Shown one piece after another: positions 1 to 63,522 of a DNA stretch of 64,000 bases. A program made the translations under genes and the position numbers. The first letter of the stretch is position 1. The number at the start of each line of letters is the position of its first letter. The notes beneath the pieces were generated by a model. The model saw only the letters and a program-made list of their open reading frames with translations. It was not told where the DNA came from and searched no databases. Source of the stretch: a virus; the IMG/VR virus record IMGVR_UViG_3300036766_001333, positions 1 to 64,000 of that record; one strand, written 5' to 3'.

Positions 1-598
1 CTTCTACCGAAATATTGATTTTCATTTCTGGAATTCTAAGATGATTAGCCAAATTGTGCTTTTTAGCATCTTTTGATGTAAGATACCAATCTGCATGTCC
101 ACGTTCATGAATTATGTCAAGAAAATAGCTTTCTTTCTGGCCACAATTTTTAGAAAGTAATTTAAAAACAAGGGTATTTAGCCTATCAGTTTCATCAGCA
201 TCGGCCTTCAAATCCTCTACTTTACCATATTGAAAGCTAGAAACTTCATGAATCATTAGGGTTGCGTTCGGGGCAATAAAGCGAAATCCTTCTTTGCCAA
301 AGCCAAAAAGTATAGCTCCTGCACTCATTGCTTTTGATTCACAAACAGTAGCAACAGGCAATTTTGAATTTTGGATTTCAGCATACAGGGATAAAAGACT
401 GTAAACTGATCCTCCATAACTGTCAACTACAATAGGGATTACGTTTTGGCCTGTTTCATGGGCTTTTGCCATGTTTTCGGCAAATTTTTCTACCGTTTCT
501 TCATTAAATTTATTAATTCTTATGACAACTGGCGGCTCAATTAAATCGGCATAATTCTTAATTTTAATTTTTGGATCAACATTTAAATATTTAAGCAC
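1..598 (-). CDS. clpP: ATP-dependent Clp protease proteolytic subunit (3' end beyond window edge)
   Basis: Not in ORF track. Hand translation from GTG at 598 (GGAG upstream) gives ...IVVDSYGGSV...KAMSAGAIL...NATLMIHEVSS, matching ClpP S-x-GG, catalytic Ser (AMSAG) and MIH motifs. Frame open to window edge. Confidence 0.9.
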   Translation of the reverse strand, partial: MLKYLNVDPKIKIKNYADLIEPPVVIRINKFNEETVEKFAENMAKAHETGQNVIPIVVDSYGGSVYSLLSLYAEIQNSKLPVATVCESKAMSAGAILFGFGKEGFRFIAPNATLMIHEVSSFQYGKVEDLKADADETDRLNTLVFKLLSKNCGQKESYFLDIIHERGHADWYLTSKDAKKHNLANHLRIPEMKINISVE

Positions 599-1498: not shown

Positions 1499-1819
1499 TT
1501 AGTTTTTACAATTTTTCTCATTTTCTAGCCATTCTAGAAACTTTCTATACACTACACTATATGATTTTCCCCATATAATTCCATGAAAATCATATTCTTT
1601 TTCCCAGGATAAAACATGACTTATTTCATGAAGCAGCACGTCGATGGCATAATATTCAGGTAATTTTTTTTCAATTCTTATTAAAAACTTATTATTTTTA
1701 AATCTACAATCCCCATCAATTCCATTAGGAAGAGATGCTCTTTTTACTTGAATATTTAACAAAGGATTTAATGTTGATTTAAGAAACTTTGAAAGTTTAT
1801 AGAATCTAATAAGCTTCAT
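1499..1819 (-). CDS. small zincin metallopeptidase (SprT/ImmA-like)
   Basis: LLHEISH HExxH motif with downstream HG..W. Confidence 0.65.
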   Translation of the reverse strand: MKLIRFYKLSKFLKSTLNPLLNIQVKRASLPNGIDGDCRFKNNKFLIRIEKKLPEYYAIDVLLHEISHVLSWEKEYDFHGIIWGKSYSVVYRKFLEWLENEKNCKN

Positions 1820-1828
1820 TAATTATAT

Positions 1829-2486
1829 CTAGATTGTTTGATTTGTTCTTTTTACAACATCATGCACAATTACCGTTTGAAGATTAGGCCATTGAGTTTT
1901 TAAATTTTTACCAAGTTGCACAAATTGATTTATATGATCCTCTCTATCATCCCAAATTTCCAGGATTTTTATATTATTATTCATTAAATGACTGTCAATA
2001 GCAAAGGCTTTATATGAAAAAGTATCATTGCCTTTAGGATATCCTGATTTTTTTACCAAATTGAGATGATTTTTAAAAAAATAATCATCTGCGGTAATAC
2101 CATAAGCTTGTAAAATTTCTTTTACTCTAGGTTCCATTTTACTGTGCCGTCCAGTCATAACAACAACATGTGTAGTTGGATCAGCCTTATCTCTTTGTAA
2201 AGCTTGAAACACTTCCTGATTTAATTTGTCGGGAGTCGGTTCAAAAATAGGAGATCGCAAAGTCTCGTCTCTCCCATACCAGCCAACTCTCCTAAATTTA
2301 GGATCGAATCCATGTTTTTCTGCTGTTTCTTTATCTGGAATTTTCCAAGGCTTTCCCCCAGCTTCATATTTTGGAATTCCTTCTTCGGGAGTTGGAGTAT
2401 TAACCAAAGTGTTGTCGAAGTCAAAAAATAACCAGGCGAGTTTTGCCTGACCCCACTTCCTCAAAGAATTTTTTAAAGTTTAACAT
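1829..2486 (-). CDS. HAD-family phosphatase, Swiss-Army-knife RNA-repair type; +1 frameshift near 2423
   Basis: FDFDNTL (motif I), VMTGR (motif II), IWDDREDH (motif IV). ATG at 2486 gives MLNFKKFFEEVGSGKTRLVIF-TGA, which joins DFDNT after a +1 shift. The ORF track starts at TTG 2464 instead. Confidence 0.75.
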
Positions 2487-2489
2487 ATA

Positions 2490-3167
2490 TTAGTTACGTT
2501 TTCTATTTAAATTTCCTTCATATAGAATCCCATTTATTGTCCGTGTAGTTGCCCACATTGGACGCAAATTATTTAACGCATTAACTATTTTTACATTTGT
2601 ATTGGGGTCAAACGTGTGAACTTGACAAATATGATCGACATGCCATTCTTTTCCATAATTCTCCCAAGACATTTCAGGAGTCCACAGTTTTTCTAAATGC
2701 ACTTTTAGTTCCTCTGCATTATATCCTAACATTTCATATGTAGAATTGATTTTGGCTTGCTTTAACTTAAGCAAAGCAGTCCTTAATAAACTTCTCCATA
2801 AAACAATATGTTTATTTTTGTTTTTCCAATTTATTGATGCAGTATTTCTTTTAAGTTTAAATTCAGGAGATTCTTTGTTATCTTTATAAAATTTATTGGC
2901 TCTTGTCTTAATTTTTTCAGCGTTGTTGGCATAATGTTTTGTTTTATATTCCTTTACTATTTGTGGATTTTTGACAGCCCTTTCCCTAGACCTTTCTATG
3001 GTTATTTCCTTGTTTTCTAAATACCACTCATGCTGTCGAACTTTAATTTGGGGTTTATTAGCCTTAAGTTTTTTACATTCTTTGCAATAAGAATGAAATC
3101 CTTTGCCTCGTCTATGAAATTCAGTAACAGGTTTTACAAACTTACAAGAAGCACATGATTTTTCCAT
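2490..3167 (-). CDS. HNH homing endonuclease with N-terminal Zn finger
   Basis: CxxC...CKEC N-terminus; MSWENYGKEWHVDHI...NNLRPMWA...N HNH core; sits between HAD and CCA genes. Confidence 0.8.
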   Translation of the reverse strand: MEKSCASCKFVKPVTEFHRRGKGFHSYCKECKKLKANKPQIKVRQHEWYLENKEITIERSRERAVKNPQIVKEYKTKHYANNAEKIKTRANKFYKDNKESPEFKLKRNTASINWKNKNKHIVLWRSLLRTALLKLKQAKINSTYEMLGYNAEELKVHLEKLWTPEMSWENYGKEWHVDHICQVHTFDPNTNVKIVNALNNLRPMWATTRTINGILYEGNLNRKRN

Positions 3168-3188
3168 GTACTAATTTAGTAATTTTCC

Positions 3189-4748
3189 TTAAAAGAAAGA
3201 TTCATTTGGCTTCCTGAGATTATTTTTGAATTTTTCAGTTTCAATATGCCTTATAGCATCACCAAATTCTACTCCTTGTGGAGTTTTTCCAAGATGCGAT
3301 ACTATATCAGGATTAACAACCCTATTGCCAAATTCATCTTTGACATAACCTTTTGTGTCCATCTTGTGATCTGCAAATGTATCAACTGCATCTTTATTAT
3401 GCTTATTCATTTCGCCCCATTGTTTTACCAAGCTAGGCACGAGACTAGTACGATCCATTCCAGATTTCATATCATAAAATCCACCTTTACCACGTTCCTC
3501 TTTCATGCCGTGGAAAAACTCATCATCGGCTTTTCCATGCTTAGAGAACCAGCGATGAAGTTTAATTAAATGCACAATGTCATTAATTTCATTATTTTGC
3601 CAAGTACCTTTAGCCAACACTTCTTTTACATCTTCTGGTTCATTGAATCTTAAAATCCAAGCGATAGCTAATCTTTTTTCTTTTTTGTCGCTAAAGTCCT
3701 TATTCGTGTCCAGTTTGAAAATCATATCTGGAAATACTCTGTTTAACAAACCTAGTTGTTTATAAAATTTAATATATTTGACAGCATCAATATCTGGATG
3801 CTCTAGTCCTTTAATAAATTCATCTCTAATACGTTCTTCACTAACTGATTTAAGGTCTTTAACTTCTTCAATAGCCTTTTTATATTCATCTGGAATCTTT
3901 TCCTCTTTGCCATATCTTGCTAAAAATCTAACATATCTCAAAGCTCTAAGTTGATCTTCTTCGAGGCGATCTTTTGGATTGCCGATAAATCTGACTTGTC
4001 CTTGTTTTAAGTGATGGATGCCGCCATGTGGATCAAGCAATTTATTGTTAGGACCATCTGGATTTGTCAATGGAATATACATTGCATTGATTGTCAAATC
4101 TCTTCTAGATGAATCTTCTTCTAAAGAAGGTGTAAATTCCATTTTATCTGGAGTCCTTCCATCACCTGATTTGGAATCTTTTCTAAAAGTAGCAATTTCA
4201 AATTCTCGACCCTTGCTACCAGGAGAAAGCTTGATTCTAGCACCAATTACGAATTCTCTTCCAGACCGATCCCAACCTTTTGCATAAAATATCTTACTTT
4301 TATCACCACCTTCTTCAAGTTTATCATATTTTTTATCTAGAGTCATATGTTTGCCAGTTTGCGGTTTGACCTCAGTAAACCCAGCGAACTTAAGAATTGA
4401 TCTAATTTCATCTGGAGTTGCTTCAGTAGCAAGGTCATAATCTTTTGGTTCTTGATTATTTAAATGTGCAACAGTTGCGCCACCTACTAACCTTAAGGTT
4501 TTCTTTTTCATCTTAGGTTCAACTTCACCACTTTTATCCATAGTTGTAGTATGATTAGGATAACCAACTGGTATATTTGGACTATCTTCAAAGGCTTTTA
4601 TTAAAATTCTCAAATCAGGATGATTCTGCCTGTCTACAATGAAAGGCTTATATGGAGAATCATCACTTAATTTAAGTTCTGATGCCACATGCTTTTCTTC
4701 TTTTTCTTCGCCTTCTCTAAACATCAAATATTCTGAAAAATTTTTCAT
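3189..4748 (-). CDS. cca: class II tRNA nucleotidyltransferase (CCA-adding enzyme)
   Basis: LVGG...KDYDLAT (DxD), EIATFR, RRDLTINAM, EDQLRALR (EDxxR), VSEERIRDE. Confidence 0.9.
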   Translation of the reverse strand: MKNFSEYLMFREGEEKEEKHVASELKLSDDSPYKPFIVDRQNHPDLRILIKAFEDSPNIPVGYPNHTTTMDKSGEVEPKMKKKTLRLVGGATVAHLNNQEPKDYDLATEATPDEIRSILKFAGFTEVKPQTGKHMTLDKKYDKLEEGGDKSKIFYAKGWDRSGREFVIGARIKLSPGSKGREFEIATFRKDSKSGDGRTPDKMEFTPSLEEDSSRRDLTINAMYIPLTNPDGPNNKLLDPHGGIHHLKQGQVRFIGNPKDRLEEDQLRALRYVRFLARYGKEEKIPDEYKKAIEEVKDLKSVSEERIRDEFIKGLEHPDIDAVKYIKFYKQLGLLNRVFPDMIFKLDTNKDFSDKKEKRLAIAWILRFNEPEDVKEVLAKGTWQNNEINDIVHLIKLHRWFSKHGKADDEFFHGMKEERGKGGFYDMKSGMDRTSLVPSLVKQWGEMNKHNKDAVDTFADHKMDTKGYVKDEFGNRVVNPDIVSHLGKTPQGVEFGDAIRHIETEKFKNNLRKPNESFF

Positions 4749-4757
4749 GATATATAT

Positions 4758-5159
4758 TTATGGTCTAATTCCTAGTTTCCAAAGGATAATCCCGCCAATA
4801 ACAATAACAATTATATTAAATGCTATACTTATTAAGTTTTTCCATTTGTCTGTATAGTTAAGAGTCAGTACTTCCATTACGGCAACTTTTTGTTGAAGTT
4901 GATTAAAAAGTTTCATTCCTTGTTGTAATTCTTTAACATCTGCCGTTAAAACGGAAATATCTTTATATACACCATTCTTATTTTCTAAAATACTAATTCT
5001 AGAAGTTATACTTTCTTGACGTTCTATTAACTTATCAATTCTGTCATTTAGATCGCTATAAGTTTCTACAAGATTCTTGACACGTTCATCAATACGTGAG
5101 GTTAAATCATACATCATTTTCATAGAATCTGAAACTTCACAATAGAATTTGTCTTCCAT
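4758..5159 (-). CDS. coiled-coil protein with C-terminal transmembrane helix (holin/XhlA-like architecture)
   Basis: Heptad-rich body and hydrophobic tail ISIAFNIIVIVIGGIILWK; probable start MEDKF at 5159. Confidence 0.5.
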   Translation of the reverse strand: MEDKFYCEVSDSMKMMYDLTSRIDERVKNLVETYSDLNDRIDKLIERQESITSRISILENKNGVYKDISVLTADVKELQQGMKLFNQLQQKVAVMEVLTLNYTDKWKNLISIAFNIIVIVIGGIILWKLGIRP

Positions 5160-5177
5160 GAACTTATATATCATATA

Positions 5178-5660
5178 ATGAACGAACATAATAAGCAATT
5201 GGAAGAAAAAGAACCATCGGAGTTAATGGTTCCAGAAACTAAAGAGGTATCTGAGTTAGTGCCGCCAATGAATGTTAATTTGCCCGCTCAACAAACCCAG
5301 CAAAGCACAGAGCTTTCCAATCTAGTCCCTGATGAGAATTTAGTAGGAATGTTCGGAGAAATTATAGACGATTTAAGAAGCAATGAAAAAGAAATTGATG
5401 GATTAATTAATAATTTTTCAGAAATGGTTATGCATGAAGGGGATGCTACTAGTGCCAGTAAAGAAGCATTAGTTAATTTAATAAAAATTAAATCAGAATT
5501 AGCTGATAAAAAGACTAAAGTGGCAGATTTAATGACAAGAATAAAATTAAAATCCAGAGATACGTTCCCTCTTTATTTATCAGCAAAACAAGAAAATAGA
5601 ATTACTATAGATAAGAGGCAAATTATAAAGGACACAACAAAAAACGAAAAGAGTCATTAA
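5178..5660 (+). CDS. hypothetical helical protein (weak resemblance to a terminase small subunit)
   Basis: 160-aa ORF; helical core KEALVNLIKIKSELADKK. Confidence 0.5.
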   Translation: MNEHNKQLEEKEPSELMVPETKEVSELVPPMNVNLPAQQTQQSTELSNLVPDENLVGMFGEIIDDLRSNEKEIDGLINNFSEMVMHEGDATSASKEALVNLIKIKSELADKKTKVADLMTRIKLKSRDTFPLYLSAKQENRITIDKRQIIKDTTKNEKSH

Positions 5661-6573
5661 AGTTAAGTCCATTTTTAACTCTATTTTTCATATAACAAAT
5701 AGCATGTCCTTTCCTGCCCCAATTCATATAAAATGTAGCCAAGGCTTCTTTAAATATCAATTTTAAATTATTTTCATCTATTAGTAATGATTTATGCGAA
5801 CTACTAAATTCAGTATACTTAATCATTGATTTTTTATATTTGTATCCTTTGACTTCTACCCATAAATTCAGCGTAGGCAGATAAAAATCTGGAATATACC
5901 AAACTTTTAATTTTCCAATGATTAATTTAAATTTTCTTGGCTCATATTTAAATGGAATATTGAGGTGTTCAAATGCTAGTGCTATAATTAATTCAAATCC
6001 TGATCTATAGTAAATGCCCTTGTACTTTAATTTTTTAATATTTTTTCTGCCTTGAATGCATCCACATGATCTAATTGTATTTCTTCTTAAGTGTTTTCCA
6101 TCCACAATAGTCATTGCATTACAATTATGACATTTACATTTCCAACGGGCTTGCCCAGATTTAGTGGAGCCTGCTCGACCTATAACTTCTAAATATCCAG
6201 ATTTTTTGCCAATCATATCAATGGCAAGTTCGCCTTTCAAACACCCACAAGATTTTGTATTTCCAGAGAGTAAGTTGTTACTTTTTACAGTTATATTATT
6301 ACCACAATTACACCTACAAAGGAAAATAAGGTTCTTTATACATTTAATAACTAATAATCTACCATATTTTTTACCAATCTTGATTTGTATACAATGTCCA
6401 CAAGATGTGGTGTGACCATTTTGCAAATTATTACTATAAGTTACAACTTCATTGCCGCAACTACACTTACATAAAAAACAAGAAGTATGGCCTTTATGTT
6501 TTTCGTATTTTAATACAATTAACTTGCCAAACTTTCTACCAGATAAATCTTTATAAAACCCTTTTTTCGGCAT
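5623..6573 (-). CDS. homing-type endonuclease: three Cys-rich repeats plus T7 endonuclease I-like PD-(D/E)XK domain
   Basis: 3x G.K.G.L.V...C.C.C...SCG repeats; YRSGFE, FKYEP, YIPDFYLP, VEVKG. Confidence 0.8.
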   Translation of the reverse strand: MPKKGFYKDLSGRKFGKLIVLKYEKHKGHTSCFLCKCSCGNEVVTYSNNLQNGHTTSCGHCIQIKIGKKYGRLLVIKCIKNLIFLCRCNCGNNITVKSNNLLSGNTKSCGCLKGELAIDMIGKKSGYLEVIGRAGSTKSGQARWKCKCHNCNAMTIVDGKHLRRNTIRSCGCIQGRKNIKKLKYKGIYYRSGFELIIALAFEHLNIPFKYEPRKFKLIIGKLKVWYIPDFYLPTLNLWVEVKGYKYKKSMIKYTEFSSSHKSLLIDENNLKLIFKEALATFYMNWGRKGHAICYMKNRVKNGLNFNDSFRFLLCPL

Positions 6574-6641: not shown

Positions 6642-7970
6642 ATGGCAACTATCAATTTAGAAGATTGGCTCTTTCATGAACAAGGAGCGTATGGCACAGG
6701 TACAGACACAATGGATACTCCAGGTGGACCTCCAACATCTGATCCTAATATGGGAGGCATGGCAGTAGCACCTTCCCCCGGAGGCGATCCAAATATAACA
6801 AATCCAGCGAAACAAATGGCAGGATCAGCGAAAGAAAAAGACCCTAACCAGGAACTCCCTGATGTAACCAATGATCCGCAAACTCCTGACATGCCAAGTG
6901 ATTCAGAAAAAGAATCTCTTGATTTTGAAAGATGGAAGAAAAATTTCATTGTTGAATCTATTAAAGGAGATGTTCAAACAATGAAAATGGCTCTTATGGA
7001 CGTAAGGGATCGTGAATTAGATACTTATCAACATAAATTTGTTGAAGATAACTATCAGATTATTCTTTTAAGAGAATCTTCAAACATAGAAAAAGCTTCA
7101 ACTGAGCTTAGGAAAGAAATAAAGAGCAATTTAGATCAAAATAATCCAGCCAGTTCAATTGTTAATCACATGATAACAGTATTGCAAAAACAACCATTGC
7201 TTAATAATTGCTTTATAAAAATGACTGGTTTACTTGGCTCAAAGTCTGATGCTCATCGTAAATTTATTGCTGGGTTGACTGGCAGTGTTCAAGTAGGTAA
7301 TGGAGCCATCAATGAAGATTTAATTTTAAATGAGAAAGAATATTCTGCTCGTATCTCTACAAGATTTAATTCAAGATTTGGTGAAGTTCATATAGGACAG
7401 TGGTGTTTAAGAACTGATGATCCAGCTAGATATTTAAAGCCTCCAGAGCTTAAAAGATTAGAGGATGGTTCTCCAGAAGAAAAAGACGTTCTTAGAAGAA
7501 GAATAGTCATGGAATCAATAGCCGACACCTTTAAGACTAGAGCTTTCATTATTAATGTGGTTGGAACAGATGGCACGATCTATACTTTAGGTTGGGATAT
7601 TGCTACATCTTTAAAAGAAGCTTATACAGAAGGCAAATTAGTAGTTAGAACTAAAAGTGATGATAGTAGTGAGGCTATGATTACTGATGACGGAGAAATC
7701 GTATCATTTGCTGAAATCAAGATAATGTATATCCAAAATACAAGAGAAGTTGATGAAGAAGGCAAACCAGAGAAAAAAGAAATAGAATTTATATCATCCA
7801 AATATGGCCAATTGTTCTTAACGGCACAGCTTCCGATACTAAGAGAAGCTTCTACTTCATTCCAAGGTATAATTTTAAAAGAAATGCCGTGGCAAGGTAA
7901 TCCTAGCGACCTATTAACCCTTAGAAGGTGTGTCCCAAGTTTGCTTGAATTGTTATTAAGAACTTGTTAA
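6642..7970 (+). CDS. hypothetical protein (442 aa) with Pro/Gly-rich N-terminus, possible virion protein
   Basis: Long ORF; TAAATA 4 nt before ATG; leader MATINLEDWLFHE. Confidence 0.6.
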   Translation: MATINLEDWLFHEQGAYGTGTDTMDTPGGPPTSDPNMGGMAVAPSPGGDPNITNPAKQMAGSAKEKDPNQELPDVTNDPQTPDMPSDSEKESLDFERWKKNFIVESIKGDVQTMKMALMDVRDRELDTYQHKFVEDNYQIILLRESSNIEKASTELRKEIKSNLDQNNPASSIVNHMITVLQKQPLLNNCFIKMTGLLGSKSDAHRKFIAGLTGSVQVGNGAINEDLILNEKEYSARISTRFNSRFGEVHIGQWCLRTDDPARYLKPPELKRLEDGSPEEKDVLRRRIVMESIADTFKTRAFIINVVGTDGTIYTLGWDIATSLKEAYTEGKLVVRTKSDDSSEAMITDDGEIVSFAEIKIMYIQNTREVDEEGKPEKKEIEFISSKYGQLFLTAQLPILREASTSFQGIILKEMPWQGNPSDLLTLRRCVPSLLELLLRTC

Positions 7971-7978
7971 TCTATGGT

Positions 7979-9001
7979 ATGAATAAAATAAATCAAGAAA
8001 CAGCACAGCAAATAATAGATTTGTATGTTGGAGGGCAAACCTATAAAGGTCTTGCTTCGAAGTTTAATTTGTATTTTTCCACGATTGCCAAAATAGTACA
8101 TGGAAAAATTTGGAAACAATGTGTAAGACCAAGCAATATTAAAGAGATTACAAATCAAAGACAAAAAGAAACAGAATTTAAAATAGGCAGGATGGAACAA
8201 TTACACGCCAGTTATCCTCCTTTAACAACTTATCAAAAAGATATAATTAATGGCTCTTTGTTAGGAGATGGAACCATTAAAAAATTTGATGAAATTCATC
8301 CAAATTCAAATTTCTGCAAATTACAATGTGCAAGATTTAAAGAATACACTGATTGGCACTATGAAGTTTTAAAGCCTTATAGTTCTTGTATTGTGAAACA
8401 TTCTCAAGAAATCGAAGGAAGAATCTTTAAAGGATTTGCTACTATCACACACCATCATCCAGTTTTTACAGAATATAGAAAAAAATGGTATCCAAATGGA
8501 ACAAAGATCGTTCCCGAAGATTTAGAATTAAATCCTTTAATTATAGCAATATGGTTTTTTGATGATGGAAACAACTCCTATAGTAAAAGACAGGTTAGGT
8601 TTTACACTCAAGGATTTCAAGTAGATGAGGCTGATTTTTTGGCAGAAAAACTAAAATGTTTTGAAATTAAGTCTAGTGTATTAATAAGAATTTCACGTAA
8701 AACAGGGAAGAAACAACCGTACTTATCTGTAAATGGTCCAAGTTACGACAATCTTATTAACTTAATTGCTCCGCATTGCAAGTGGAAATGTTTTGAATAT
8801 AAGGTTAAACACAGAAAAGCTATTAAACAATGGGAACAAGATCAAGTCAAGTTATCAGAAGATAAAGTCAGAAAAATATTTTTACTTAAAAAAGATTATA
8901 CAAATAAAGAAATTGCCAGGAAATTTACCGTACATCACGGAACTATATCAAGAATTATCAATGGCGGGTCTTGGAAGCATCTCAATTTAGCAAATAAATA
9001 A
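7979..9001 (+). CDS. LAGLIDADG homing endonuclease with terminal HTH domains
   Basis: GSLLGDG and AIWFFDDG motifs; HTH-like LASKFNL..STIAKIV and IARKFTV..GTISRII. Confidence 0.85.
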   Translation: MNKINQETAQQIIDLYVGGQTYKGLASKFNLYFSTIAKIVHGKIWKQCVRPSNIKEITNQRQKETEFKIGRMEQLHASYPPLTTYQKDIINGSLLGDGTIKKFDEIHPNSNFCKLQCARFKEYTDWHYEVLKPYSSCIVKHSQEIEGRIFKGFATITHHHPVFTEYRKKWYPNGTKIVPEDLELNPLIIAIWFFDDGNNSYSKRQVRFYTQGFQVDEADFLAEKLKCFEIKSSVLIRISRKTGKKQPYLSVNGPSYDNLINLIAPHCKWKCFEYKVKHRKAIKQWEQDQVKLSEDKVRKIFLLKKDYTNKEIARKFTVHHGTISRIINGGSWKHLNLANK

Positions 9002-9025: not shown

Positions 9026-9529
9026 ATGAAACCTTTTAAGGCATTTATAGATCATAAACATCGAGAATCTAGAAAACAACTTAAGCTTATTGAGAAAGTG
9101 CTAGAATCTCAAGGAATGCAAGTTAAAGATTTTTTAAAAGAAGACGATCCATACATCTTTATTTTGAACCCTATTAAAGAAGCTGGGTTTGATGGCATAA
9201 GATTATATAAAATTGGCGAAACCATTGCATTTAGGGTTCAAAAGAGAGAGAAGACACATCCATTTGGTGCAGCTTATGAACTTCCTGTAGAAGAAATGTT
9301 TGATGATATCTTGACAGATGTAAGAAATCCAGAAAAAGCTGGCAAAGAAGTAATTAAATTTGTCACTGAAGAAGTCAAAAGATTTTTTAAGAAGAGTGCT
9401 GAAGCGGCAGAGCAAATCAGAGGCAATATTAACTTCGATAATGACCAACAGCCTTGGAATAATAAGATAGTAATGCGCACAAATGAATTGGGTATTGACT
9501 TTGCAAATATGGTTTACACAAAAGGCTAA
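9026..9529 (+). CDS. hypothetical protein (167 aa)
   Basis: ORF track; leader MKPFKAFID; TACATA upstream. Confidence 0.6.
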   Translation: MKPFKAFIDHKHRESRKQLKLIEKVLESQGMQVKDFLKEDDPYIFILNPIKEAGFDGIRLYKIGETIAFRVQKREKTHPFGAAYELPVEEMFDDILTDVRNPEKAGKEVIKFVTEEVKRFFKKSAEAAEQIRGNINFDNDQQPWNNKIVMRTNELGIDFANMVYTKG

Positions 9530-42788: not shown

Positions 42789-42800
42789 TAAATAATTATT

Positions 42801-44352: not shown

Positions 44353-44360
44353 TATAAATA
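44353..44360 (+). promoter_or_regulatory. T4-type late promoter
   Basis: Exact TATAAATA consensus. Confidence 0.7.
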
Positions 44361-44364
44361 TAGT

Positions 44365-53694: not shown

Positions 53695-53740
53695 TATTTC
53701 TCCAACTAAAGTAATATTAAATAACTAAATATAAAATAGT

Positions 53741-56464: not shown

Positions 56465-59400
56465 ATGGCGTGGACAGATTTTTTTAAGCTTTTTAATAGT
56501 ACCTTTACATTAGACCCATTATCTAAAAAATCAGATAGAAAAAATCTACCAAGCGCAGGCGTATCATCAAATGATGTTTTTCCTGATCCTAGAAATACTG
56601 ATAGCTTATCTTCTGGGACAGGCGGCTTCATAAGAGTACAAAACGATTTAGTCGATCTTACAACTACAACTAATCGAGTAAACCGATATAAAGAATATGA
56701 TAGATTAGTTGCAAGTATATCTGAAATTGAAATGGCAATGACAGTATTTGCCGATGAAGCTTGCGTATATGAAGATACAATCATAAATACAGTCTTTCAT
56801 GGCCCTAAAACCATTAAATGGCTACAACAAAATAAAACAGATGATAAGTTTCCAGTATATTGTTATGACTTTAAAAAAGAAGATTATACAGTTGGATGGT
56901 CCTATGCTCCAAGATTTGTTAAAAAAGCAAAAACCGTAAGGGTTATTCTTGATAATGGAGAAATAGAAATAGTAACTCCAGATCACAGAATACTAAGAAA
57001 AGATGGCGAATGGATAATGGCAGAAAATTTAAAGTTTGGTGATAAATTAATGCCATTTTACAAAATAAAAGCAAATCAAAATTTAACTAAAGTTAAAACT
57101 AAACAATTTCCAAGAATTTTTACACATAATAAAGGCTGGATACATGAACGTCAATTTTTAGATGAATGGAGAAGTGGGAAAGATTTACCAGAATATGAAA
57201 AAGTAAACAAATTAGGCAGATTGCTAGCCCAAAAACTTCATGTAAAAGATATCGCAAAATTAATGGGAGTCGCAGCACCTACCCTTGAATACCAGTTATC
57301 AAGTGAAGGATTTAGCTGTAAAGAATTCAGGTTATTATCTAAAAACTTATCTTACAGAAGGGTAATCAAAGTAGAACCCTGGCATGAATTAGATGTATAT
57401 GATTTGTCTGTAGAAGATCATAAAAACTTTTGCACTCAGTCTTTAGTAATGCACAATTGTCAAAAAGATGAAGATGGACAAGTTTTCAAAATAACATGCA
57501 AAAATCAAGATGTAAAAGAAGAATTAGAAACTTTATTCTTTAAAGTCCTAGAATTCGATCAATTGAATATTTGGGATAAAGCTAAAAGACTATTCATAAA
57601 AGGAGATGCATTTTGGGAAATAGTAGTAGACCCGGATAATCCAAAAGATGGAATTCTAAAGATTGCCGATTTGCCCCCAGATAATATGTATAGAATCGAA
57701 TCGACTAAAGGCAAAGTTCTTGAATATCAACAAGCAAAAGAAGGTCCAGATTATCAGGCTTTACTAAAAGCTCCATTAGGAATGGCTACTGATAATGAAT
57801 TAGCACAGTCTATGGCCATTAGATTTACCCCTGACCAAATCATACATTTAAGAATTGGAGATTATAGAAAATCCTTTTATCCATATGGCGTTAGTTTAAT
57901 AGAACCAGCCAGAGGACCAGCCCATCAATTAAAAATGATGGAAGATAGTATGGTCGTATATCGACTTTGCCTTGCTGGTAATACTAGAATTAGAACGGCA
58001 GATTATTATAAGTATATTAAAGATTTAGATATTGGCGATATTGTTTATAGTTTCTCCGAATCTGGCAAACAAATGCCAACGACAGTAGAAGCTGTTAAAA
58101 ATAATGGAAAGCAAAAAGTTTATGACGTTATTTCTAGGCATGTAAGTATTCGTGGTAATGAAACGCATCCAATTTTAGTTAACAGAGATGGCGTCTATCA
58201 ATATGTTGATGTTAAGAACTTAATTCCTGGTAAAGATAAATTTATATTAACCACTAAAGATGTTGGATTTATTCCTAGTATTCCAAGGATTTACGGACCA
58301 ATGTGGGCTAAGCTTAATGACGAAGCTAGAAAAGAATTTAAAAATAAACGCTTTAAAAACAAATCTCAACTAATGAGGCAATGTTCTTCTGAATTTGGAA
58401 GAGTAAGACAATTCTTATATACTAAAGGTAAAGCATTGCCTTTAGAAAGAGCCAAAGAAATATGTAATATATTTGGCATAGATGAATCCAAATTATTGCT
58501 AGTTAATAAAGGGGAAAATAATTCTGAAAGAATAAGTTTACCTGAGCGAGTCACTGAAGAATTTGCTAAGTTATTTGGTTTTATTTGTGGTGATGGGTCT
58601 ATTCATAACAACAATCAAATTTCATTTTCTTCTTCAGAAGACGACCAAATAAATCAATATTATTCTGGACTACTTCAAAAGTATTTTGGAAAGGTAAGAT
58701 TCGAGTTAGATAAAAGATCAAAAAAGAAATTAGGCAAATTTGTATCTGATTCTACAACTGCATGTAAAGTATTTGGTGCTATGGGATACATTCATAATCA
58801 CCACAACACGAGAATACCAAAATGGGTGTTTAATTCTCCTAAAAATATTCGACGAGCATTCGTTGAAGGGTTGTCAGATGCAGATGGATGTGAGCGATTT
58901 ACCAAGAAAGGCACTTGGTTTTCTACAATTGAATTGTGTAATGAGAAACTAATAGAAGACATTAAAGAATTATGGTCTTCTATTGGGCTTTGTTCAGGAC
59001 AGTTAAAGAAAAGGACAAGAGAAAATAAGCACTTATTACTTGGTAGAAAGCTACCTGTAAAAACCACTTCTTATTTGGTTACTATTAGTGATAATTTATT
59101 ACCTAAAGAAGAAAATATAACAAAAGTAGTAGAGGTTGGAGAGGAAGATGTATATGACATCACTGTGAATTCTAATTATCATAATTTTATAGCTAATGGC
59201 ATTCCAGTTCACAATACAAGAGCGCCTGAGCGTAGAATATTTTACATAGACATCGGTGGTCTTCCCAGCTTTAAAGCTGAAGCTTTCATTAACAGAATGA
59301 AAGATCAGTTTAGGAAGAAGAAGATGACTCATAATATGAATAATAGTACGACTGGAGCTTCGGCTGTAGATGAAAGATGGCACGCTCCAGCCGTAGATGA

Positions 59401-60244
59401 GGATATTTGGATTCCAGTAAGACAAAATTCAACTACAAGAATAGACACTTTACCTGGCGCACAAAACTTAGGAGAAATAGATGACACAGTTTATTTCAGA
59501 ACCAAGTTATTTGCCGCACTTAACTTTCCACCTAACTACTTCTACTCACAAGATGCAAATGCTACTAGAATTACACTTTCAGCGAATGATGTAAAATTTG
59601 CCAAGTTAATAGAAAGATTACAAGCTTATATGGAATATGGCTATAAAGAAATAGCCATAAGACACTTAAAATTAATAGGTTATCCAGAAAATACATTTGA
59701 AGACATAAAAATAAAGATGACGCCACCTTCTGATTGGCGAGAATTAAGTCGAGCAGAAGTCATAACAAATAGAATTAATAATGCTAATTCTCTTAAAGGC
59801 TCCCAATTGTTATCTGATTATGATATCTTAACAAAATGGATGAAATACCCAGAAGATGAAGCAAAAGAAATGATAGCTAGAATGAAAATTCAAAAATTAG
59901 AAGACTTAAAGCTTCAAGTTCTAGCTCAAAATCCTCAATTGCTTGGCGTTGGCATTCCAGGTATGGGCGAACAAGAAATTTCAGCACAGCCAGGCGGTCC
60001 TAACCCAATGCTAGGTCCAGATCAACAAATGCCACCAGGAGGTCCACCAGCAGGCCCAGAAGGTCCGCCACCTGAAGTTGCACCACAATCAATGGAGAAG
60101 TCTGAACCGGCACCTGAACCGCAATCTCAGGCCAAACCGTTACCTAATCCAACAGATGATGATATTATTAAATACGATCTTGAACTTCAGGACTACGATC
60201 AGGATCAAGATTATGAAGAACCTGACTATAGTGAAGGAGAATAA
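56465..60244 (+). CDS. portal protein (T4 gp20-like) with two inteins
   Basis: RYKEYD...EI..A....ADEA, EDSMVVYRL|TRAPERRIFYIDIG.LP..KAE, ED.WIP.R, IDTLPGAQNLGEIDD; about 611 aa after splicing. Confidence 0.95.
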   Translation: MAWTDFFKLFNSTFTLDPLSKKSDRKNLPSAGVSSNDVFPDPRNTDSLSSGTGGFIRVQNDLVDLTTTTNRVNRYKEYDRLVASISEIEMAMTVFADEACVYEDTIINTVFHGPKTIKWLQQNKTDDKFPVYCYDFKKEDYTVGWSYAPRFVKKAKTVRVILDNGEIEIVTPDHRILRKDGEWIMAENLKFGDKLMPFYKIKANQNLTKVKTKQFPRIFTHNKGWIHERQFLDEWRSGKDLPEYEKVNKLGRLLAQKLHVKDIAKLMGVAAPTLEYQLSSEGFSCKEFRLLSKNLSYRRVIKVEPWHELDVYDLSVEDHKNFCTQSLVMHNCQKDEDGQVFKITCKNQDVKEELETLFFKVLEFDQLNIWDKAKRLFIKGDAFWEIVVDPDNPKDGILKIADLPPDNMYRIESTKGKVLEYQQAKEGPDYQALLKAPLGMATDNELAQSMAIRFTPDQIIHLRIGDYRKSFYPYGVSLIEPARGPAHQLKMMEDSMVVYRLCLAGNTRIRTADYYKYIKDLDIGDIVYSFSESGKQMPTTVEAVKNNGKQKVYDVISRHVSIRGNETHPILVNRDGVYQYVDVKNLIPGKDKFILTTKDVGFIPSIPRIYGPMWAKLNDEARKEFKNKRFKNKSQLMRQCSSEFGRVRQFLYTKGKALPLERAKEICNIFGIDESKLLLVNKGENNSERISLPERVTEEFAKLFGFICGDGSIHNNNQISFSSSEDDQINQYYSGLLQKYFGKVRFELDKRSKKKLGKFVSDSTTACKVFGAMGYIHNHHNTRIPKWVFNSPKNIRRAFVEGLSDADGCERFTKKGTWFSTIELCNEKLIEDIKELWSSIGLCSGQLKKRTRENKHLLLGRKLPVKTTSYLVTISDNLLPKEENITKVVEVGEEDVYDITVNSNYHNFIANGIPVHNTRAPERRIFYIDIGGLPSFKAEAFINRMKDQFRKKKMTHNMNNSTTGASAVDERWHAPAVDEDIWIPVRQNSTTRIDTLPGAQNLGEIDDTVYFRTKLFAALNFPPNYFYSQDANATRITLSANDVKFAKLIERLQAYMEYGYKEIAIRHLKLIGYPENTFEDIKIKMTPPSDWRELSRAEVITNRINNANSLKGSQLLSDYDILTKWMKYPEDEAKEMIARMKIQKLEDLKLQVLAQNPQLLGVGIPGMGEQEISAQPGGPNPMLGPDQQMPPGGPPAGPEGPPPEVAPQSMEKSEPAPEPQSQAKPLPNPTDDDIIKYDLELQDYDQDQDYEEPDYSEGE
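56762..57457 (+). mobile_element. intein 1 (232 aa, no LAGLIDADG)
   Basis: DEA|CVYEDT...VTPDHRIL (block B)...VYDLSV..HKNF....VMHN|C. Confidence 0.92.
57968..59215 (+). mobile_element. intein 2 (416 aa) with LAGLIDADG endonuclease
   Basis: YRL|CLAGNT...NETHPIL...LFGFICGDG...FVEGLSDADG...VYDITV...HNF.ANGIPVHN|T. Confidence 0.95.
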
Positions 60245-62780: not shown

Positions 62781-62841
62781 ATTTTTATTTCAAAAAACAA
62801 CTATATAACCAATAGATATTTTGTTGCAAAGGAATCAATAT

Positions 62842-63522
62842 ATGAATCAAACTGTAATGTTATTAGAAGATTGTTGCGACGGCACTTGTTTATTTGTAGA
62901 CCTTAATGAATCCAATGTTGAAAAAGGTTTAATAAAATTTAGAGGTAAATTTCAAGAAGCCGAAGCTGTAAATAAAAACAAAAGAATGTATCCGTTTGCT
63001 GTTCTCGATGAGAATGTGCAAAAATTAACAGAGGTTGTAAAAGCCCGTGGATTAGTAGGCGAACTCGATCACCCAACTGATTCTATTATCCATTTCAAAG
63101 AAGCATCACATATTATTACGAAATTAGTATGGGAAGGAAATATTCTTAATGGCGAAGGAGAAATTCTTAATACAGCACATGGCAGACAATTAAAAGCATT
63201 AATTAGTGATGGAGTAAGAGTTGGTATTAGTAGTCGTGGTGTTGGTAATGGAAAAGTTAATGAAAATGGAATCCTTGTAATTAGTGAAGGTTATAAATTA
63301 ATTACATTTGATGCTGTAGCTGATCCCTCAACATTTGATGCTTATCAGCAACGTGTAACTGCTGCTAAAAGAGAAAATGTAATAGTTCCAAAAAATTTTG
63401 AAGATTATGTTACAAAAAATGAAACTAAGCGCATAGATAAAATAAGTAAAGAAGCAGTAGTAGCTGCTTTTAGTGGAATTATTAAAGAACACAAAGATAA
63501 AATTTTAGAGAGGTTAAAATAA
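62842..63522 (+). CDS. prohead core protease (T4 gp21-like)
   Basis: N.NKR.YP, GELDHP, SHII, GISSRG.G, TFDAVADPS. Confidence 0.95.
   Translation: MNQTVMLLEDCCDGTCLFVDLNESNVEKGLIKFRGKFQEAEAVNKNKRMYPFAVLDENVQKLTEVVKARGLVGELDHPTDSIIHFKEASHIITKLVWEGNILNGEGEILNTAHGRQLKALISDGVRVGISSRGVGNGKVNENGILVISEGYKLITFDAVADPSTFDAYQQRVTAAKRENVIVPKNFEDYVTKNETKRIDKISKEAVVAAFSGIIKEHKDKILERLK

Follow-up and report, generated by a model that had tools for sequence, protein, structure and literature searches.

A CCA-adding-type nucleotidyltransferase and a HAD phosphatase of the RNA-repair type are encoded on one strand near the start of IMGVR_UViG_3300036766_001333, a contig of 77.9 kb (33% G+C) from a huge uncultured phage, the first 64 kb of which were analysed here and are referred to hereafter as the window. 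The region is a conserved module in a clade of huge phages with T4-type heads, in which a coiled-coil protein with a hydrophobic tail, the CCA-type nucleotidyltransferase, the SAK-type HAD phosphatase and a small SprT-like protein follow one another. The strongest result is that this tRNA-end module carries a tag system, made up of a TAnATA box, the ATG and an N-terminal leader peptide that resembles the capsid-targeting sequence (CTS) of the T4 internal proteins (IP). The best overall explanation, towards which we lean slightly, is that the conserved module has a late-type box and a CTS-like propeptide and that its products would form an injected cargo acting on tRNA 3' ends. The weakest link is the proposal, put forward in a preliminary description of this DNA, that the injected enzymes repair tRNAs before any phage gene is expressed.

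The leader of the CCA-type protein (Table 1) is found in more than 100 orthologs, many of which lie on phage contigs of 500–670 kb. It runs to 12–13 residues with the consensus [RK][KR][ST]F.E[YF][LVMI].L[KR]E, and 87 of 101 leaders have Glu at their end, the family consensus for the putative cut site being L-[KR]-E. Across the more than 100 orthologs, the mean frequency of the commonest residue was 0.49 in the leader, as compared with 0.50–0.66 in the enzyme body and 0.29 in the linker that follows the leader. This linker is the least conserved segment and varies in length from 0 to 43 residues. In an AlphaFold2 model of the window protein, residues 4–14 form a helix with a predicted local distance difference test score (pLDDT) of about 68, residues 14–19 are disordered and a confident fold begins at residue 21. 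Synonymous codons vary at the conserved leader residues (TTT/TTC, GAA/GAG and AAA/AGA/AGG/CGT), indicating that selection acts on the leader peptide. In alignments with cellular and distant homologs, the leaders did not match any part of the normal catalytic fold: the CCA catalytic core begins near residue 83, as judged from the Protein Data Bank (PDB) profile match and from tblastn matches in other phages, and distant HAD homologs begin at motif I. The leaders are thus modular, phage-only N-terminal additions that distant homologs do not have.

In the CTS of T4, residues 4 and 7 serve targeting, residues 8 and 10 govern processing, and the first ten residues load foreign proteins (PMC9026906). 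The T4 record gives MKTYQEFIAE as the start of IPII and IPIII, and MKTFKEF as that of IPI. Targeting sequences of the T4 type are N-terminal peptides of 10–19 residues with the cut site (L/I)-x-E. Like these peptides, the leaders of the huge phages lie at the extreme N-terminus, with positions 4 and 7 aromatic, position 8 hydrophobic and a Glu at the putative cut site. The corresponding residues in the window are F4, Y7 and L8 in the CCA-type protein and F4, F7, F8 and E10 in the HAD leader, in agreement with the earlier comparison of both leaders to the CTS. A matrix derived from CCA leaders ranked IPI first and IPIII fifth among 148 T4 open reading frames (ORFs). As in T4, proteins unrelated to one another bear the tag, and the same genome also encodes a protease, a portal and a capsid protein of the T4 type. 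The CCA leader exceeds the T4 CTS by two to three residues, and its L-[KR]-E occupies +6 to +8 counted from the Phe. The putative cargo differs as well and includes a 58-kDa nucleotidyltransferase and a HAD phosphatase.

The distribution of the tag was assessed by scoring all N-termini against all internal windows of sequence with a position matrix derived from CCA leaders in other genomes. In this contig, four N-termini matched the matrix, with 0.15 expected. The closest relative of the window CCA protein in a complete public record (58.5% identity over residues 3–516) is encoded by LR756511, the complete 595-kb genome of an uncultured phage, which is without annotation and has a G+C content of 42% and 1093 ORFs. 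There, 25 N-termini matched as compared with 1.9 expected, and in the related clade loci the count rose to 126, with 3.6 expected. Fourteen loci of other phages gave counts near expectation, L078 excepted. A looser core motif was present in 54 of the 1093 LR756511 ORFs, where 9.7 were expected (P = 2.5e-23). Dozens of unrelated proteins of the same genomes bear the same tag, about 45 per complete genome; those of LR756511 have a median length of 153 residues, and a Pfam scan of the ten largest leader-bearing proteins of that genome returned no informative family. The exception, L078 (IMGVR_UViG_3300046028_010384), belongs to a different lineage, with seven leader-bearing ORFs in 20 kb and a CCA gene without an N-terminal extension. 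The tag system thus extends beyond the clade, and cargo sets differ.

The TAAATA sequence that the preliminary description had placed 6 nt before the ATG of the CCA gene is present at that position. In LR756511, 19 of 27 leader ORFs have a TAnATA sequence that ends 3–9 nt before the ATG, as compared with 74 of the 1066 others (P = 1e-15). Many of these 74 genes have weaker leaders, and the HAD gene, gp2-like and gp6-like genes and the gene for a 1640-residue structural protein are among them. Of the 94 ORFs of this contig, 21 have the box, among them those for the CCA-type protein, the SprT-like protein (with a TAGATA of its own, 6 nt ahead of the ATG), the large terminase terL and the gp2-like protein. 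We also considered that TAAATA is merely a stop codon followed by an AT-rich spacer. This was rejected as the sole explanation, because the same box recurs at the same spacing before the 19 leader genes of a genome with 42% G+C. TAnATA genes lacking a Shine–Dalgarno sequence account for about 8% of the ORFs in LR756511 and 22% here (for example at 42789–42800, 44353–44364 and 53725–53740), which suggests that the class consists of mRNAs with almost no untranslated leader, made from a late-type promoter.

T4-type head machinery is present in the same genomes. The head and structural genes of the contig encode a large terminase, a gp20 portal with inteins, an S77 protease, a gp23 capsid protein and gp2-, gp25- and gp6-like proteins; the protease, portal and capsid protein were also found in LR756511. 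The protease is 30% identical to T4 gp21 (E = 6e-27) and keeps the GELxHP and SSRG motifs. By analogy with T4, it is the presumed partner that would remove the leaders. Searches of LR756511 and the contig by phmmer with T4 gp22, gp67, gp68, Alt and PseT gave no match. In the giant phages phiKZ and SPN3US, a T4-related prohead protease processes many proteins of the head interior by cutting after Glu, and these proteins are subsequently ejected into the host (PMC5694885). Those ejection proteins have the cut motif A/S/G-x-E and propeptides that mostly exceed 100 residues, whereas the leader described here is short and T4-like. Packaging of the leader-tagged proteins in the capsid is plausible, and somewhat more likely than not.

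In the proposed mechanism, the TAnATA element would serve as the late-type promoter of the near-leaderless mRNAs. The leader would act as a T4-like capsid-targeting propeptide, binding the scaffolding core and bringing the protein into the prohead, where the gp21-type protease would cut it off after the conserved Glu. The mature proteins would be injected with the DNA and would handle tRNA 3' ends: intact CCA versions would probably add CCA both to the phage's own tRNAs and to damaged ones, and the HAD would remove 3'-phosphates. Should the leader prove to be a genuine signal for loading into the head, huge phages would deliver a preformed set of proteins, tRNA-end enzymes among them, with the DNA, and the internal-protein principle of T4 would extend from a handful of small proteins to dozens of different cargoes. 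The order box–ATG–leader would then serve as a sequence rule by which such proteins could be predicted solely from metagenomic data. The closeness of the tag to the T4 CTS means that T4 itself can serve as the test system, so that no huge phage need be cultured.

Table 1. Coordinates of the features discussed, numbered from the first letter of the window.
Feature	Position	Strand	Remarks
ClpP-like protease	2..598	-	Pfam CLP_protease 1.4e-23; end of the conserved block
SprT-like (HExxH) small protein, about 105 residues	1499..1819	-	Pfam SprT-like 0.0016; third gene of the cluster
HAD_SAK_1 phosphatase body	1829..2464	-	TTG-start ORF; Pfam PF10307 1.1e-12
Short HAD-leader ORF	2421..2486	-	ATG at 2486; reads MLNFKKFFEEVGSGKTRLVIF (MLNFKKFFEE...RLVIF); stop TGA at 2421-2423
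T6 run with one base too many, splitting the HAD gene	2423..2428	T6 on -, A6 on +	Context TTT-TGA-C
HNH/endonuclease VII-type homing endonuclease	2490..3167	-	PHROG phrog_1035, 6.6e-10; no Pfam match
Class II CCA-adding-type nucleotidyltransferase	3189..4748	-	519 residues; begins MKNFSEYLMFRE
Variable acidic linker, residues 13-21 of the CCA-type protein	4686..4712	-	Residues 14-19 have pLDDT <50
CCA leader, codons 1-12 (MKNFSEYLMFRE)	4713..4748	-	F4 invariant and E12 in at least 90% of a 50-sequence alignment
TAAATA box	4755..4760	-	6 nt before the CCA ATG; TAA (4758-4760) is the stop codon of the upstream gene
Coiled-coil protein with hydrophobic C-terminal stretch	4758..5159	-	Directly upstream of the CCA gene, 9-nt spacer
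gp21-type prohead protease (Peptidase_S77)	62821..63522	+	Pfam 9.4e-26; PHROG head maturation protease 1.9e-46

Pfam and PHROG matches bore out the basic arrangement that had been described, a CCA enzyme and an RNA-repair-type HAD in the same orientation with an HNH gene between them. The CCA-type protein consists of the leader, the linker and a clade-specific domain of about 60 residues, followed by head, neck, body and tail. It matches the PolyA_pol head domain (PF01743, 7e-22) and an RNA-binding domain (PF12627) in Pfam, the tRNA nucleotidyltransferase family in PHROG (2e-43) and human TRNT1 in a PDB profile search (6e-41). The AlphaFold2 model has a mean pLDDT of 92.4, and its best Foldseek match is 4x4w (1e-15), with other CCA enzymes below. 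The protein thus shares the head–neck–body–tail fold of the class II CCA enzymes (human TRNT1, 4X4W/8CBM; Geobacillus, 1MIV; Thermotoga, 3H37; Escherichia coli Cca), as well as their DxD (D103/D105), RRD (215–217) and EDxxR (264–268) motifs. It differs from them in its 82-residue N-terminal extension, formed by the leader, the linker and the clade-specific domain, in about 30 residues inserted into the head and in the sequence of motif A. E. coli Cca carries an HD phosphohydrolase domain, which the window protein lacks.

The HAD body scores 48.6 bits on HAD_SAK_1, for which the cut-off is 25.6. Motifs I (DFDNT), II (MTGR), III (Lys) and IV (DDR.EH) are intact and their columns are invariant in the ortholog alignment. 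In PHROG, the body belongs to a polynucleotide-kinase family, and there is a weak PDB match to Pnkp1. Pfam membership and motifs I–IV are shared with standalone 'Swiss-army-knife' HADs and with the RNA-repair HAD domains of the PNKP type (PF10307; T4 PseT; Pnkp1, 4XRP). CCA-adding and HAD families have already been read as RNA-repair parts of jumbo phages, whose HADs, like that of the window, are encoded by standalone genes in large phages with CCA-adding and RNA-ligase genes (PMC7824862). As compared with standalone SAK-type HADs, the window type has an N-terminal leader, follows a CCA-type gene and, in the window, is frameshifted. Leaders occur on many HAD orthologs (MNLNFRQYVE, MILEFRKFMES, MKNFLEYLCMKES and MITFERFVTIKES).

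The two proteins had been described as starting with MKNFSEYLMFRE and MLNFKKFFEE. Both leaders are real; the HAD start was found to lie in a different frame from the body, which reads ...LAWLFFDFDNTLV, the two being separated by the frameshift at the T6 run. Removal of one T from this run gives ...RLVIFDFDNTL, as in intact HAD orthologs, and the leader ORF aligns with the N-termini of such orthologs (for example MNLNFRQYVE... and MNINFKEFME...). DNA matching the window was found in contigs from two sediment-metagenome runs. A second assembly of the probable source sample (a Logan contig of 7869 nt, word depth 9.4) was identical over positions 1800–4800, with no indel. Hence the extra T cannot be put down to a single assembler; no independent sample is involved, and the frameshift rests on the probable source sample only, as the second DNA run did not reach the T6 run.

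Linkage of the two genes and the catalytic residues were counted over 53 dereplicated syntenic loci, 115 database orthologs being scored separately; other synteny counts were taken over 80 retrieved loci. Linkage of the pair in related phages, proposed earlier as a check, is real but not universal. In 18 of the 53 loci, the HAD gene comes immediately downstream of the CCA gene; a further 9 have it elsewhere within the 10-kb flank (on the opposite strand in 2), and 24 have none in the flank. HAD_SAK_1 proteins also adjoin leaderless CCA genes in the unrelated phages L070 and L076.

Several observations weigh against the favoured explanation, with respect both to injection and to repair. In the window, the P3 residue of the putative cut site is Phe (F-R-E in the CCA-type protein and F-E-E in the HAD) instead of Leu or Ile, and the likeness to the T4 CTS depends on a motif that is short and amphipathic. 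No enrichment of the exact T4 late box, TATAAATA, was seen in the window (11 exact copies, 13.1 expected), and a phmmer search of LR756511 and the contig with T4 gp55 gave no match, although a divergent homolog could be missed. The earlier interpretation as a whole is partly supported: it stands as regards the leaders, the protease, the shared box and the linkage, and falls short as regards the exact late box, gp55 and conserved repair chemistry. Furthermore, the tight link of the leader to near-leaderless mRNA allows the conserved start to be read as a translational signal. Of the 63 tRNA genes of LR756511, about 59 have no encoded CCA, so that plain maturation would be a sufficient role for active CCA versions; no tRNA genes were found in the window or the whole contig. 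Both points are accommodated by ordinary cytoplasmic tRNA maturation, in which the CCA enzyme finishes phage tRNAs, the HAD is an accessory end-healing phosphatase and the leader, instead of being a packaging signal, reflects translation of near-leaderless mRNA or another role such as that of a localisation signal or a degron. The regularity with which TAnATA lies 3–9 nt before the ATG of leader genes that lack a Shine–Dalgarno sequence, the mostly AT-rich codons of the leader and the ClpP-like gene in the conserved block are also consistent with this alternative. We nevertheless consider it rather unlikely, on account of the leader itself. Conservation is at the protein level, with exchanges among F/Y/W, L/V/I/M and K/R and with varying synonymous codons. 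The motif spans 12–13 residues and ends in a conserved h-[KR]-E, the T4 IP proteins carry the same peptide, and catalytically altered orthologs keep it. In LR756511, moreover, the leader of the CCA protein is retained even though 22 nt separate the ATG from the box and the gene has a Shine–Dalgarno-like GAGAGG.

The remaining points concern repair. Re-addition of CCA, which the preliminary description had assigned to the pair, could not be upheld as a conserved function. In the window protein, motif A (GGxVRD) reads GGATVA (codons 4467–4484), with loss of the VRD that is kept in 112 of 115 orthologs; its closest relative reads GGGSIG. DxD, RRD or EDxxR is altered in 30 of the 53 clade loci and in 29 of the 115 database orthologs, so that more than half of the clade orthologs, in contrast to class II CCA enzymes, are without the catalytic residues. 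The usual replacements are N-x-D, N-R-D and E-D-x-x-T, and DxD together with the D and R of EDxxR is essential for CCA addition (PMC11784652). The altered orthologs all keep the leader, stay full-length and conserved and often keep the HAD gene, and adjacency of the HAD is independent of catalytic integrity (P = 0.59). From their sequences, they are probably pseudoenzymes. Since these 30 orthologs retain the leader and HAD adjacency is not tied to catalysis, what the clade conserves cannot be CCA re-addition. A conserved role in tRNA-end binding is more likely, because half of the clade has lost the catalytic residues while keeping the protein and its leader, and this repeated loss in a tagged protein raises the question of what use a non-catalytic tRNA-binder is to the phage. 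The HAD is affected as well. The frameshifted gene of the window phage has no single intact frame from its ATG. In L005, the HAD (L005:11600-12030) has an internal deletion from motif I through the region before MTGR, a second case of HAD decay in the clade. HAD orthologs in L022, L025-27, L031 and L033 have no leader beside a tagged CCA protein, so the pair is not always tagged together. With the HAD split and CCA motif A degenerate, the enzymatic pair may be impaired in the window phage.

Such lesions could mark a decaying remnant in the window phage, in which the HAD is a recent pseudogene or a leaderless protein started from TTG, no 3'-end repair takes place, and the CCA-type protein, having lost nucleotide-binding residues, is kept for a non-catalytic role such as tRNA binding. 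The recurrence of the frameshift in the second assembly of the same sample, the deletion in L005, the 24 loci without a nearby HAD, the departure of the window protein and its closest relative from VRD and the changes at residues essential for catalysis all argue for this reading. To set against them, the HAD has a single lesion, with all four motifs intact, and D103/D105, RRD and EDxxR are intact in the window CCA protein; on balance we regard a remnant as possible but not probable. A programmed +1 frameshift would make the T6 run functional instead. Ribosomes pausing at the weak stop TTT-TGA-C would slip on the U run, giving mostly a 21-residue leader peptide and a minority of full-length tagged HAD. 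Precedents for +1 shifting at a shifty stop exist in prfB and in Listeria phage PSA. A slip at this site would produce precisely the junction ...RLVIF-DFDNTL that the orthologs have, the sample DNA does contain the T6 run, and the gene is otherwise intact. The case is, however, a single one, all other orthologs that were read being in one frame; no Shine–Dalgarno-like stimulator lies upstream of the site, and the HAD decays elsewhere in the clade. We consider programmed frameshifting very improbable.

Returning to the injected tRNA-end cargo, a more general form of this explanation can be put forward tentatively, and we do not expect it to hold in full. A portable cassette, consisting of a late-type box at the ATG and a CTS-like leader, would load the roughly 45 tagged proteins of each genome into the capsid, including a tRNA-end-binder of the CCA-enzyme family that is tagged despite catalytic loss. 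From the first moment of infection, the injected cargo might protect tRNAs, sequester them or transport them, or might serve as a decoy against defences that target tRNA, with or without CCA addition.

The HNH gene between the CCA and HAD genes is not at this position in relatives, where the HAD gene directly follows the CCA gene; it is an insertion in the window phage. In LR756511, a Peptidase_C13 gene (legumain/caspase-like; L001:7508-8200) on the opposite strand occupies the position of the window's HNH gene, and the cluster also contains a histidine-phosphatase-family gene (L001:9287-9913). In 35 of the 80 loci, the SprT-like gene comes third, after those for CCA and HAD, and its LR756511 ortholog (L001:8932-9243) matches the Pfam family at 9e-6. 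The coiled-coil gene and the ClpP-like gene are each syntenic in 26 loci. For the former, the start at 5159 is likely, as inferred from the LR756511 ortholog. The PHROG families matching the latter are named head maturation protease, and it is present besides the gp21-type protease near the capsid gene.

Two proteins without a family match, encoded at 9026-9529(+) and 6642-7970(+), adjoin the gp2-like gene and start in a leader-like manner (MKPFKAFID and INLEDWL). They are conserved in nearly all syntenic loci and, judging from these starts, may be head-internal proteins. The closest database relative of the window CCA protein, P0002 (84% identity), begins MLKES..., seemingly without a leader, and may be a truncated gene call. 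A megablast search of phage records with the window DNA gave no match. The window reads well in the standard genetic code. In LR756511, ARAGORN reports a tRNA at 179588-179661 with the anticodon CTA (labelled Pyl), possibly an amber-suppressor tRNA.

Homing-endonuclease-type genes are frequent around the module. Three lie within 9 kb: the HNH gene described above (2490-3167(-)), an HNH plus endonuclease gene at 5623-6573(-) and a LAGLIDADG gene at 7964-9001(+). They point to heavy traffic of mobile endonucleases. The T4-type portal gene at 56465-60244(+) has 1259 codons, which include intein splicing and LAGLIDADG domains.

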